From positions 32,001 to 96,000 of the IMG/VR virus record IMGVR_UViG_3300023174_000047: a DNA stretch of 64,000 bases; one strand, given 5' to 3'. Made by a program: the position numbers and the translations under genes. Of the stretch, positions 56,399-58,909 are shown piece by piece. Position 1 is the first letter of the stretch; each line of letters begins with the position of its first letter. A model generated the notes under the pieces. That model saw only the letters and a list, made by a program, of their open reading frames with translations, did no database searches and was not told the origin of the DNA. This DNA is from a virus (taxonomy: Duplodnaviria; Caudoviricetes).

Positions 56399-56931
56399 AC
56401 ATGGGCAATAAAAATGCACCGCTAGGTGATGATGACATTGCATCCTCTATTACACTTACAGGGCAATTCATCAACAAATCTTCTCGATCACTTGCAAGGG
56501 AATATGTTGCTAATGTTTTAGGTCATGACAAGTTTGAAGACATTGCTGTTGCCGGGGATACAGACAGTGTGGTTGCAGATGCTGTTATACGCACATCCTG
56601 CGGCAATTTTACAATGGAAGAGTTATATGAATTATGTGAAGAAAGGGGCGGAACTACAAGTATTTCTAAAACCGGTCATGAGTTTCTAACCCCTTCATTT
56701 GACATTACAACCAATTGCGTCGATATGGATGACTGTACTATGCAGAATGCTAAGATTAGCAAGATAAGTAAAAGAAAGGTAAAGAAAGAGATATACAGAT
56801 TGAGAGCTGATAACGGCAAATACATTGATGTAACTAAAGATCATAGTTGTATTGTCATGAGGAACGGTAAACTTATAAGTGTCAAGCCTGTAGACATCAT
56901 TAAAACTGATATGCTGGTGATACAAAAATAA
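56399..56931 (+). CDS. gp43: DNA polymerase second subunit, exon 2: motif C GDTD followed by the N-half of a split intein
   Basis: SITLTGQ...AGDTD, then SVVADAVIRT (block A, from 56566) and VTKDHSCIV (block B TxxH); ends at TAA after 121 intein residues. Confidence 0.92.
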
Positions 56932-56955
56932 GTATCACCAGCATAAATAGTACAT

Positions 56956-57954
56956 ATGATAAAAAATAAAATTAATGAAAATGACGAAAATACATATGTC
57001 ACATGCAGAGTGTGTAATAAAAAGCTTGTCAGAGTAGACGGCAATCATATTGCAATGCATGGACTTAATACCGCTTCTTATGATGTTAGATTTAACACTA
57101 CAAAAGAAGATAGAATTGCAAAAACTATAATCAATAAATTAAAATTTACCAAAGATATATCTATTGAAAAATATGGCCTTGAAGAAGGAATGAAGCGATG
57201 GAACGAATATAGATTAAAACAATCCTTAAAAAATACATTTGAGTATAAGCATCATAAATATGGCTGGACAAGAGAGCAGTTTGACGAATATAACCGTGGA
57301 AGAGCTTGTACCCGTGATAATTTTATAAGAAGATACGGAGATGAAAAAGGTTGTGCAAAATGGGATGAATATATAAAATTACAAAAATATGTTGGATGTA
57401 GTATTGAATACTTTAAAGATAAACTCGGTGAAATAGAGGGGCAGCAGAGATATGATGCAGTGTGCAGGAGTAAAATAAACAATCTATATAACTATATTAA
57501 AAAATATGGTGAAGAAAAAGGCATAGATAGATACAAACATTATATTGAAAAGAAAGCTTCTAAATCCTTTCATTCAAAAATTTCACAAGATTTATTCTGG
57601 AAAATACACAACAATACAAATAATCAATATTTTGCTCAAAAAAATAAAGAATTCTGCATTTATGACAATGTAAAATGTCGACCGTTTTTTTATGACTTTG
57701 TAGATACGACTAGTAAAAAATGTGTTGAATTTAACGGTGATATATTTCACGCAAATCCGCTAATATATAAAGCCGAAGATACACCCAATTTTTATAATAA
57801 AAATATATCAGCATATGATATATGGGAACATGATAATTATAAAATTAAAATACTTGAGAGTCTTGGTTATAGTGTTATAATTATATGGGAATCAGAATAT
57901 ATTAATGATCCAGAGGGATGCGTGAGCCGGGCAAAAAAATTTATTTATGAATGA
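56956..57954 (+). CDS. Free-standing Vsr/DUF559-like homing endonuclease between the split-intein halves
   Basis: N-terminal CRVC..H..H zinc site, repeated KYG.E.G..R/KW units, C-terminal YDF...VEFNGDIFH...D..K...GY.VIIIWESE; CATAAATA at 56942-56949. Confidence 0.85.
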   Translation: MIKNKINENDENTYVTCRVCNKKLVRVDGNHIAMHGLNTASYDVRFNTTKEDRIAKTIINKLKFTKDISIEKYGLEEGMKRWNEYRLKQSLKNTFEYKHHKYGWTREQFDEYNRGRACTRDNFIRRYGDEKGCAKWDEYIKLQKYVGCSIEYFKDKLGEIEGQQRYDAVCRSKINNLYNYIKKYGEEKGIDRYKHYIEKKASKSFHSKISQDLFWKIHNNTNNQYFAQKNKEFCIYDNVKCRPFFYDFVDTTSKKCVEFNGDIFHANPLIYKAEDTPNFYNKNISAYDIWEHDNYKIKILESLGYSVIIIWESEYINDPEGCVSRAKKFIYE

Positions 57955-58909
57955 TATAAAATTAGTGAATATTGATTCTATTGAGATTATCAATAGTGAT
58001 GAGCAATATGTTTATGATATAGAAATAGATAGAGATAATGCTCACAATTTTTTTGCTAACGATATTCTTGTACATAACAGTGTATATCTCTCCATTGCAC
58101 CACTCCTCAAGCATCACAACATACCGCTTCTTACAGATGGCAAAGTAACGCCACAGGTGTATGAAGTTATCGATAATCTCAATAATTATATCAATGAAAA
58201 AGTCAAGGAGCGGATGATTAATTCACTTAACTCTCTTGATCCTAGAATCTTTTTTAAGCGAGAGTCCATCATTGACAAAGGACTATTTTTACAAAAGAAG
58301 CGATACGTTGCGCATGTAGTAGATGATGAAGGCATTGTATGTGACAAGTGGAAGTATGTGGGTGTAGAAGTGGTACGAACTGCAATGCCTAAAGCAATTA
58401 AACCATATGTCAAAAAAATTATTGAGACAATGATTGGTGTACAGAATCGTGCTGATACAAACAAGGTCCTCAATGAGGCATATGAGGTGCTGAAATCACT
58501 GAAGCCAGAGGAAATTGCATATGTCATGGGCATGAAAGATTATGATAAGCATGCAAATAATTGCAAAGATTTTACAACTGCAAAAGGCATGCCAGTGCAT
58601 GTTAAATCTGCATACTTCTACAATACATTGCTCAAAAAGCTTGATTTAGAGACCAAATATGAAAAGTTACAATCTGGAGATAAGCTACGCTGGATGTATA
58701 TCAAGACACCGAACAAATACAACATTAAAACCATTGCATTCAAATACTATTATCCAGCCGAATTTAGTGCATTATTCCAGCCTGATTATGAAACAATGTT
58801 TGAGAAAATTATCTTTAGTGTAGTAGAGAGATTTTATGCTGCTGTTAAGTGGCCATCACACAAACCAAACGAGCAGACAACAGTCGATTTATTTGACTTA
58901 TTTGGTTGA
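57947..58909 (+). CDS. gp43: C-half of the split intein (44 aa) fused to the polymerase C-terminal palm/thumb
   Basis: YVYDIEI...HNFFANDILVHN then S(+1)VYL; followed by KRESI, KKRYV, KYVGVEVVRT, GMPVHVKSA and GDKLRW. Confidence 0.93.
   Translation: MNDIKLVNIDSIEIINSDEQYVYDIEIDRDNAHNFFANDILVHNSVYLSIAPLLKHHNIPLLTDGKVTPQVYEVIDNLNNYINEKVKERMINSLNSLDPRIFFKRESIIDKGLFLQKKRYVAHVVDDEGIVCDKWKYVGVEVVRTAMPKAIKPYVKKIIETMIGVQNRADTNKVLNEAYEVLKSLKPEEIAYVMGMKDYDKHANNCKDFTTAKGMPVHVKSAYFYNTLLKKLDLETKYEKLQSGDKLRWMYIKTPNKYNIKTIAFKYYYPAEFSALFQPDYETMFEKIIFSVVERFYAAVKWPSHKPNEQTTVDLFDLFG

Follow-up and report, generated by a model that had tools for sequence, protein, structure and literature searches.

A probable naturally split Ser1/Ser+1 intein of the Aes123 PolB1 type in the DNA polymerase gene of an uncultured freshwater T4-like phage

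Described split inteins and the polymerase locus

Few efficient cysteine-independent split inteins have been available so far (PMC12707363). Aes123 PolB1, found in the gp43 PolB gene of Aeromonas salmonicida T4-like phages (Aes123, Aes508, Aes512 and others), is a split intein of 120 aa + 39 aa without cysteine, which has been published and crystallised and trans-splices in vitro (structure 9HTH; engineered forms CL and CLm; PMC11923092). LCGC14 PolB2 also trans-splices in vitro, and it was tested together with CP21 PolB1 and GOM-OPS-1 PolB2 (PMC12707363). The GenBank annotation of the Aes508 locus gives gp43A, then a nuclease gene of the GIY-YIG type, a group I intron together with the N-intein, a Vsr-like ORF and lastly the C-intein. 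The closest annotated phage copy to the intein described here, that of Tenacibaculum phage PTm1/PTm5 (36% identity across the whole IntN), lies in a three-ORF cassette of N-precursor, VSR endonuclease and C-precursor; no biochemical characterisation of it was found in the literature searched. The order extein-IntN, free-standing endonuclease, IntC-extein is that of the gp41-1, NrdJ-1, IMPDH-1 and other fractured genes (Dassa et al. 2009, PMC2677866), which differ in having Cys1 and other host genes; no PolB motif-C Ser1 allele is among the examples in the passages of that survey consulted.

The window analysed here is a 64,000-nucleotide stretch (positions 32,001 to 96,000 of IMG/VR record IMGVR_UViG_3300023174_000047) which carries the PolB (gp43-like) DNA polymerase locus of an uncultured freshwater T4-like phage. 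The features of the locus are collected in Table 1. When the whole polymerase locus was compared with the phage collection by megablast, no match was obtained; that collection contains no close sequenced relative of the phage.

Table 1. Features of the polymerase locus (positions are those of the window)
Feature	Position	Strand	Description
gp43A	53622..55118	+	498-aa N-terminal subunit of the polymerase, with the exonuclease domain, motif A and the first fingers helix
GIY-YIG-like free-standing homing-endonuclease gene	55104..55985	-	293 aa; in the gap between gp43A and gp43B
gp43B exon 1	56046..56157	+	own ATG; second fingers helix, motif B KIFINSVYG
Group I intron	56158..56398	+	241 nt, ORF-less; Rfam RF00028
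gp43B exon 2	56399..56565	+	N-extein to ...AVAGDTD, motif C aspartates
IntN	56566..56928	+	121 aa; Ser1, block B T90-K-D-H93, basic patch 61-80, Arg70
Perfect 14-bp hairpin	56910..56945	+	arms 56910-56923 and 56932-56945; first TAA in 8-nt loop
Vsr-like (EDxHD-type) free-standing homing-endonuclease gene	56956..57954	+	332 aa
IntC	57947..58078	+	44 aa, no Cys; block F VYDIEI..HNFFAN, block G ILVHN
C-extein	58079..58909	+	276 aa, Ser+1-VYLSIAPLL...; polymerase palm and thumb

The polymerase pieces were identified by profile searches and by comparison with a relative, L007, in which an uninterrupted 849-aa polymerase is encoded. gp43A matched Pfam DNA_pol_B_exo1 (2.5e-18) and DNA_pol_B (5.9e-13) and is colinear with the L007 protein up to ...EMMNLKK, exon 1 of gp43B matched DNA_pol_B (4.8e-4) and is continuous in L007 (...KIFINSVYGYMGNKNAP...), and the C-extein matched phrog_262 DNA polymerase (5.6e-46) and is again colinear with L007. 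The GIY-YIG-like gene gave a weak Pfam LEM-3_GIY-YIG match (0.0085) and a match to phrog_15526 (8e-6), and it is present in neither L007 nor the relative L014. Aes508 has a Seg-like GIY-YIG gene at the corresponding gap, whereas the gene here lies on the opposite strand.

The intron within gp43B scored 84.9 bits against the Rfam group I model (threshold 50; E 4e-21), with U as the last base of the 5' exon and G as the last base of the intron. The joined reading NSVYG-Y-MGN matches the L007 sequence, and contigs of runs X3 and X7 have ...AATAGCGTTTATGGTTAT immediately 5' of ATGGGC and so lack the intron. A covariance score above the gathering cut-off, the U/G boundaries and an intron-less allele identify it as a group I intron. 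The N-precursor reads from exon 1 over the intron to 56399-56928, giving 214 aa; an ATG at 56401 was considered as its start and rejected, as it falls within exon 2.

The intein halves and their relatives

An ORF at 56401-56931 reads ...AVAGDTD/SVVADAVIRT...VTKDHSC...DMLVIQK and ends at TAA 56929, with a further in-frame TAA at 56944; the Ser1 codon is AGT at 56566. A second ORF (57947-58909), in a different frame from the nuclease gene, begins MNDIKLVNIDSIEIINSDEQYVYDIEIDRDNAHNFFANDILVHN/SVYLSIAPLL, and the last base of its Asn44 is 58078, so that IntC ends ...VHN/S with Ser+1 next. Its ATG overlaps the stop of the nuclease gene (ATGAATGA), with no clear Shine-Dalgarno sequence 5' of this start. 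The original prediction, a naturally split intein at polymerase motif C with 121-aa and 44-aa halves divided at GDTD/S, a first residue of Ser and two in-frame stop codons, thus proved correct to the base, and both stops were also found in an independently assembled contig of run X3.

The profile search which had been proposed as a check was positive for both halves: Pfam Intein_splicing (PF14890) matched IntN with E 6.4e-9 and 36.2 bits (curated cut-off 35.8; profile positions 7-94 of 155) and IntC with E 6.8e-5 and 23.1 bits (positions 116-155), which is far beyond chance. Among solved structures, both halves matched the Aes123 PolB1 intein 9HTH best (E 2.7e-10 to IntN, 2.3e-6 to IntC), with the same junctions (DTD/S.. 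and ILVH./SVYL); PolB16 8CPN matched IntC at 3.9e-5. In the N-half alignment (A1) DTD, S and T..DH are invariant, and neither Ser1 nor Ser+1 varies in alignments A1 and A3; block B has T in 179 and H in all 181 of the 181 aligned relatives. The residues of ester chemistry are all retained (Ser1, T90, H93, the penultimate His H43, the terminal Asn N44 and Ser+1). These nucleophiles, the T-x-x-H and His-Asn motifs, the profile match at both ends and an allele with an empty site are the features of a class 1 intein.

IntC has a net charge of -8 and residues 61-80 of IntN a charge of +8; opposite charges in split-intein fragments have been described (PMC11923092). Structure prediction, the other proposed check, also came out in favour of the pair: a complex model of IntN and IntC, each with five extein residues, gave an ipSAE of 0.83, compared with 0.00 for the best of three controls. 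Among 78 solved complexes 51 attained this mark, and among 108 mismatched pairs 2 did. Contact agreement among runs was at least 91% and partner pLDDT at least 77. As such a pass may be memory of similar solved complexes, it indicates likeness only.

Alleles without the intein fix its insertion point. Motif C of L007 is uninterrupted, reading AGDTDSVYLSIAP / AGDTDSVYLSIAPLL with GDTDSVYL and no insert, and a further intein-free fragment (P0004) reads AGDTDSVYLCIEPLL. The split layout was found again in relatives at 36-66% identity. L014 encodes a 698-aa N-precursor, a 333-aa nuclease whose frame differs from that of IntN, and a 319-aa C-precursor; IntN ends at the same place in L005 (62% identity over the N-half, 56551-56928) and in L004 (36% identity when all 176 aa of the ORF are compared), and intein-containing split DNA polymerase precursors are annotated for PTm1 and Aes508. 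The split is therefore conserved in all five of these diverged relatives. At least 69 of the 149 representative clusters listed end within 8 residues past IntN and appear split at DTD/S, some of them possibly at contig ends. A 46-kb contig of run X3, from a different study, covers 56401-58200 with 31 substitutions, no indels and both TAA codons intact. These data demonstrate the anatomy of the intein, its homology, the existence of empty sites and the conservation of the split.

The allele is the same as Aes123 PolB1, sharing the gp43 PolB gene, the DTD/SVYL motif C site, Ser1 and Ser+1, sequence homology, a split at the endonuclease position and, as in Aes123-type phages, a Vsr-like ORF between the halves; the upstream gp43A/B split with its GIY-YIG gene and the group I intron are also common to both. 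Identity to Aes123 PolB1 is about 30% for IntN (tblastn), 40% for the N-half in alignment A1 and 51% for IntC. PolB16 and inteins such as CP21 PolB1 are likewise Ser1/Ser+1 split inteins in PolB of T4-like phages or metagenomes; PolB16 shares the SGDTD N-extein but has an atypical split of 15+168 aa, and Campylobacter phage CP21 was matched by both IntN and the nuclease. Identity of the Ser1/Ser+1 split PolB relatives to the window copy is low, about 27-33% for those found.

The novelty which the original prediction had implied did not stand, since the Aes123 PolB1 allele has been published and crystallised; the arrangement is already known, and the Aeromonas phage relatives are already used as cysteine-free ligation tools. 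As regards the suggested use as a cysteine-independent tool, the catalytic positions are free of cysteine, but the intein as found is not, as IntN contains five non-catalytic cysteines (positions 12, 24, 51, 57 and 95); in this it departs from Aes123 PolB1, which has no cysteine anywhere. The idea of such a tool has in any case already been realised with homologues tested as cysteine-less inteins (PMC11923092, PMC12707363).

The nuclease gene and its upstream elements

A free-standing endonuclease gene between the halves, in a fractured-gene layout like that of gp41-1, had been predicted and is present. In the 332-aa product an N-terminal C2H2 finger (C17, C20, H31, H35) precedes five helical KYG..G..W repeats. 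Its nuclease domain is C-terminal; here D247, E258 and H265 do not vary among 33 homologues, and D293 is almost invariant. More than 130 homologues were found, several named very-short-patch-repair endonuclease, and the match to phrog_22677 was 9e-66. Searched against the PDB by phmmer, the single sequence gave a chance match only, and it took a profile built from the 33 homologues to arrive at Vsr, the catalytic residues then aligning with Vsr D51, H69 and D97. Foldseek with the AF2 model (pLDDT 92) retrieved 1VSR (probability 1.00, TM(target) 0.56), I-Bth0305I 3R3P (0.96, TM 0.63-0.65) and 3HRL (0.96, TM 0.68), with E-values (0.017-0.37) that are weak since all three parts of the protein were in the query. 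The C-terminal fold, the catalytic Asp, His and Asp and the family Glu place the nuclease in the EDxHD, Vsr-like group. The prototype I-Bth0305I shares this fold and these residues, the Glu (E258 here) standing at the position of Vsr Phe62, but it has two NUMOD2/HTH motifs in place of the Ros/MucR-like C2H2 finger and five KYG repeats, and it is intron-encoded whereas the nuclease here is intein-associated. A back-translated pattern scan of viral contigs revealed no relative of the nuclease. A single 274-nt contig from the metatranscriptome run X17 maps within the nuclease ORF, at 57309-57582; as DNA may be present in metatranscriptome libraries, it is no proof of transcription.

The stretch containing the hairpin at the end of IntN (56895-56965, 71 nt) folds with -28 kcal/mol (RNAfold); L014 and L005 have identical arms but different loops. 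The sequence CATAAATAG-N5-ATATG follows it at the start of the nuclease gene, and CATAAATAG..ATATG likewise stands 5' of the GIY-YIG gene start. In Dassa et al. (PMC2677866), fracturing endonuclease genes are described as preceded by hairpins and the late-promoter-like TATAAATA, and the nuclease stop overlaps the next start, as is the case here. In the window neither TATAAATA (10 found versus 6.4 expected) nor CATAAATA (13 versus 7.7) was clearly enriched, and the reading of CATAAATAG as a late promoter accordingly rests on the literature. The hairpin and the late-promoter-like element may have a regulatory role.

Proposed splicing and alternative explanations

The sequence evidence makes it highly probable that the locus encodes a genuine naturally split class 1 intein of the Aes123 PolB1 type which splices in trans. 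We infer the splicing itself, the order of events and the target of the nuclease as follows. Splicing of the group I intron would first repair the gp43B message, from which the N-precursor (93 aa of extein ending in GDTD plus IntN) would be translated, with the 320-aa C-precursor, IntC first, made separately. The basic patch of IntN and the acidic IntC would capture each other and form one Hint domain; Ser1 would give an oxyester, the N-extein would be transferred to Ser+1, and Asn44 of IntC would cyclise, so that motif C would read GDTD-SVY without a seam in a gp43B of 369 aa, which would pair non-covalently with gp43A. The Vsr-like nuclease would be the mobility engine, cutting intein-free polymerase alleles near GDTDSVY during co-infection, whereupon the whole 1.5-kb cassette would be copied in.

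Position 70 of IntN bears on whether splicing occurs. The NX motif, [K/R]-His in Ser1 inteins, has been defined and its His proposed as a signature of oxyester inteins (PMC10189870). The window copy has K69-R70 here, as do its close relatives L005 and L014 with Arg70; His is found in 170 of the 181 aligned relatives and Arg in 4, and both Aes123 PolB1 and PTm1 (R-H; other ORFs are inserted upstream in this phage) keep the His. Replacement of the NX His by Ala abolished splicing, or nearly so, in PolB16, Psp Pol-1 and Mvu-M7 Pol-3 (PMC10189870), and efficiency or even activity of the window copy is therefore not guaranteed. The halves might on this account be a decayed intein which docks and no longer splices, the polymerase being a three-piece non-covalent complex with the intein as assembly domain, and the non-covalent gp43A/gp43B split shows that the polymerase already tolerates one such division. 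We regard this as unlikely, given that the residues of ester chemistry are intact and conserved, that an unspliced 165-aa domain inserted right after DTD would occupy the active site, and that Tyr or Asn occupies the NX position in some natural Ser1 inteins (PMC10189870). In addition, dN is far below dS in comparison with L014 (about 0.12 for IntN and 0.24 for the nuclease). The dN/dS values are qualitative only, given the saturation of dS and, in the case of the short IntC, an undefined dS.

Two further explanations, each very improbable, would restore a contiguous intein. IntN and the nuclease ORF share a frame with only the two TAA codons between them, as might result if sequencing or assembly errors had broken up an intein with an internal endonuclease domain; IntC, however, is in another frame, so that two read-throughs and a frameshift would be required, and the X3 contig has the same stops without indels. 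The three-ORF layout recurs in L014, PTm1 and Aes508 with different spacings and frames, each ORF has its own start at a position conserved in relatives, and Vsr-like nucleases are the free-standing type of the fractured genes, with half of such loci carrying one (PMC2677866). Alternatively, the 1-kb insert might be removed as RNA, in the form of a nuclease-bearing intron, or skipped by the ribosome, leaving a mini-intein which splices in cis; a true group I intron lies 170 nt upstream in the same gene, and the strong hairpin at the end of IntN would fit. A Rfam scan of 52000-60000 (E up to 1) nevertheless detected no intron in 56929-57946, and the non-coding sequence, 24 nt 5' of the nuclease ORF and 0 nt 3', leaves no space for the core of an intron. 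Among the contigs of four runs none bridged 56929-57946 in a joined form, although contigs cannot prove absence. Homologous halves trans-splice as separate proteins (PMC11923092), and known bypassed gaps span tens of bases rather than about 1 kb (PMC2677866).

With trans-splicing as the preferred reading, it is conceivable, if rather less than an even chance, that the clade of the window copy, L005 and L014 consists of natural Ser1/Ser+1 split inteins which splice without the NX histidine, with Arg70 instead. If active, they would provide a second route of Ser1 activation and, at roughly 30-40% identity to Aes123 PolB1, would probably be orthogonal to the CLm and LCGC14 inteins. This natural His-to-Arg change offers a ready-made test of the role of that residue, and for protein engineering one more diverged Ser1/Ser+1 split intein is on offer.

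To biology the locus adds little, as one more polymerase gene which three independent mobile elements have entered; the polymerase would be rebuilt through the association of subunits, the splicing of RNA and trans-splicing at the protein level, a picture already annotated for Aes508. The independent movement of the three elements is illustrated by their presence and absence in close relatives: L007 has none of them, L014 carries the intein alone, the intron alone occurs in L009-L011, and the X3 and X7 strains have the intein but lack the intron.

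Polymerase gene and its three interruptions

The window belongs to an IMG/VR virus record of 203,774 bp (estimated completeness 96%) with T4-like gene content, in which PolB is followed by a UvsX-like RecA, thioredoxin and QueC. The PolB gene is interrupted at three places, and the features are presented in the table, where a slash marks an intein junction.

Features of the interrupted PolB gene in the window
Feature	Position	Description
Interruption 1, gp43A/gp43B split	gp43A ends 55118; gp43B starts 56046	498-aa gp43A; gp43B restarts with its own ATG
GIY-YIG-like gene	55104-55985	Within the gp43A/gp43B gap, opposite strand to polymerase
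Interruption 2, group I intron	56158-56398	After motif B; Rfam RF00028, 84.9 bits
Interruption 3, split intein	IntN 56566-56928; IntC 57947-58078	
IntN-bearing ORF	stop TAA 56929; second in-frame TAA 56944	C-terminal end ...AVAGDTD/SVVADAVIRT...VTKDHSC...DMLVIQK
Hairpin	56910-56923 / 56932-56945	Perfect, 14 bp; first TAA in loop
Nuclease ORF	56956-57954	332 aa, between IntN and IntC ORFs
IntC-bearing ORF	start 57947	MNDIK...VYDIEI...HNFFANDILVHN/SVYLSIAPLL

All three insertion points were confirmed at residue resolution by a related 224.7-kb viral contig (L007), whose unbroken 849-aa polymerase reads ...MMNLKKSGNKSKDVQDKITQLNAKQLCIKIFINSVYGYMGNKNAPLGDDD...AVAGDTDSVYLSIAPLL... without interruption. 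This comparison also fixes the actual N-precursor at 214 aa, encoded by 56046-56157 and 56399-56928, rather than the 176-aa ORF starting at ATG 56401. The intron was given its tabulated boundaries on three grounds: a U closes the 5' exon, a G closes the intron, and joining the exons yields NSVYG-Y-MGNKNAP. At the gp43A/gp43B split (55104-56045), SGNKSKDVQD of the L007 polymerase is replaced by ELSRIEEQLKNT followed by a stop and by MKDNKQLLERANYLRD, and therefore both new subunit ends bear extra helical residues. The thioredoxin and QueC-like genes downstream of uvsX (60448-61499 onward) hint that the phage may modify its DNA through a 7-deazaguanine pathway.

The group I intron carries no ORF and its presence is independent of the intein. 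The intron without the intein was found in three contigs (L009-L011), the intein without the intron in contig L014 and in contigs from two public sequencing runs (X3 and X7), and neither element in L007. As ...AATAGCGTTTATGGTTAT runs directly into ATGGGC in the X3 and X7 contigs, these strains carry the intein cassette without the intron.

Split intein in polymerase motif C

The original prediction of a split intein at motif C, with halves of 121 aa and 44 aa, agreed with the sequence, and the proposed Hint-domain search matched Pfam Intein_splicing to both the N-half (E 6.4e-9, profile positions 7-94 of 155) and the C-half (E 6.8e-5, positions 116-155). Since these matches cover different profile ranges, the two ORFs encode complementary parts of one Hint domain. 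Invariant in the alignments of N-half and IntC relatives were DTD/S, block B T..DH, block F VYDIE..H.F..N and block G LVHN/S.

An assembly error or simple read-through could mimic such a split. When contigs of public runs were compared over 56400-58200, an independent 46-kb X3 contig from a different study covered 56401-58200 with 31 substitutions, none of them in either TAA, and no indels; as had been claimed, simple read-through is precluded by the two stops, and IntC lies in a different frame from both IntN and the nuclease ORF. Relatives are split as well. In contig L014 (73.8 kb, syntenic with the window) the polymerase-IntN precursor is 698 aa long and the IntC precursor 319 aa. Its nuclease (333 aa, 55% identical) is read in a different frame from IntN, and the contig has neither the gp43A/B split nor the intron. 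Further IntN ORFs, P0002 (contig L005, 66% identity) and P0003 (contig L004, 36% identity), stop at one shared alignment position. Both artefacts were excluded on these grounds. An Rfam scan revealed no intron within 56929-57946, and the nuclease ORF is flanked by 24 non-coding bases before and 0 after. With IntN as the query, an exhaustive search (E up to 0.001) recovered 608 representative proteins; among the 149 matches listed (window's own protein excluded), 69 carried the DTD/S site and ended at most 8 residues past the match, some maybe at contig ends.

With respect to function, dN between the window and L014 was far below dS (about 0.12 for IntN and about 0.24 for the nuclease), ratios which are qualitative only as dS is saturated. 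IntC carries -8 net and IntN residues 61-80 carry +8, which is the segregation of charge known from split inteins (PMC11923092). The proposed structure prediction of the pair, modelled with five extein residues on each half, gave an ipSAE of 0.83 (best control 0.00), with run agreement on at least 91% of contacts and partner pLDDT of at least 77; the ipSAE mark was reached by 51/78 solved complexes and 2/108 mismatched pairs. Because similar complexes have already been solved, the model may have passed by drawing on those known structures, and the predicted complex shows likeness, not binding. The NX motif ([K/R]-His) was identified in PMC10189870 as peculiar to Ser1 inteins, three of which depend on it critically. 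Its position reads K69-R70 in the window and R-R in L005 and L014; the His column among 181 aligned domains held His (170), Arg (4), Thr (3) and Lys (2).

Fractured-gene layout and the Vsr-like nuclease

The anticipated order of extein-IntN, endonuclease and IntC-extein was borne out by three ORFs. A hairpin, motif and overlap typical of fractured genes accompany them. L014 and L005 share the hairpin arms exactly but differ in the loops. The hairpin is followed, ahead of the Vsr-like gene start, by CATAAATAG-N5-ATATG, which also lies upstream of the antisense GIY-YIG gene start, and the stop of the nuclease ORF and the start of IntC overlap (ATGAATGA). For 15/16 loci, Dassa et al. (PMC2677866) describe the same features in fractured genes: hairpins with TATAAATA ahead of the nuclease start, and a nuclease frame that overlaps the downstream one. 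As the motif was not clearly enriched within the window, we only infer that it would act as a promoter before the nuclease start.

The nuclease family comprises >130 proteins, and the sources of several use the name very-short-patch-repair endonuclease. The window member matched PHROG 22677 (9e-66). D247, E258, G261, H265 and W311 were invariant in 33 homologues and D293 nearly so. In profile alignment to Vsr, conserved residues fell at D51, H69 and D97, and E258 lay opposite Phe62, where Glu is family-specific according to Dassa et al. (PMC2677866). The AlphaFold model (pLDDT 92) matched Vsr 1VSR (prob 1.00, TM 0.56) and the I-Bth0305I catalytic domain 3R3P (prob 0.96, TM 0.63). The N-terminus holds a Ros/MucR-type C2H2 finger (PF05443, matched by 8/33 family members) and then five helical KYG repeats.

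Known relatives and other possible inteins

The observation and its core interpretation as a split intein proved correct. The element adds a diverged member to a family that is already known and characterised by experiment, and GenBank already annotates its architecture. The best PDB match of both halves was the Aes123 PolB1 intein 9HTH (IntN E 2.7e-10, IntC E 2.3e-6), with identical extein junctions. This cysteine-less, naturally split intein (120 + 39 aa) from PolB of T4-like Aeromonas salmonicida phages trans-splices in vitro and is the starting point of the engineered CL and CLm tools (PMC11923092). CP21 PolB1, LCGC14 PolB2 and GOM-OPS-1 PolB2 have also been tested (PMC12707363), and the PolB16 intein occupies the same SGDTD site (PMC10189870). 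Searching phage genomes by tblastn with IntN and the nuclease located the cassette in Tenacibaculum PTm1/PTm5 and Aeromonas Aes508, Aes512, Aes516 and AS-gz, IntN alone in the Campylobacter CP21 group, Pseudomonas PA5oct-like jumbo phages and Salicola SCTP-2, and a partial IntN match in Lak megaphages. In the Aes508 record, gp43A is followed by a Seg-like GIY-YIG endonuclease, gp43B-1 "including group I intron and N-intein", a VSR-like-domain ORF and gp43B-2 "including C-intein"; the window has the same layout, apart from its antisense GIY-YIG gene.

The suggestion of a Cys-independent tool held in part: the catalytic positions lack Cys, but IntN contains five cysteines within its 121 aa and is therefore cysteine-free at those positions only, and CL and CLm already exist. 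The element is of value because it may serve as an orthogonal Ser1 split intein and because it naturally has Arg in place of the NX His; its importance is modest.

Several metagenomic PolB fragments (P0126, P0131, P0133, P0135-P0137, P0142, P0148, P0154, P0169) read ...(I/V)HN-TD/S before the Ser1 intein. From its sequence, the (I/V)HN two residues upstream resembles the His-Asn terminus of a further intein, in which case two inteins would stand in tandem within motif C.

Outside the window, this phage has a second gene that looks fractured, the one for its large terminase (G000:C1:134447-137614 = L003; ORFs L003:107-1426 and L003:1414-2958). The first about 115 aa of its 514-aa terminase ORF are intein-like, with a TPKH block B and ...VLCHQ/C ahead of the DELAF Walker B, and Pfam gave a weak Intein_splicing match (18.8 bits) followed by Terminase_6N and Terminase_6C. 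As block B sits in the C-piece, this may be a TerL intein with an atypical split. The ORF upstream contains KYG repeats (DUF7487), a Vsr-like segment and a Mom-like domain.
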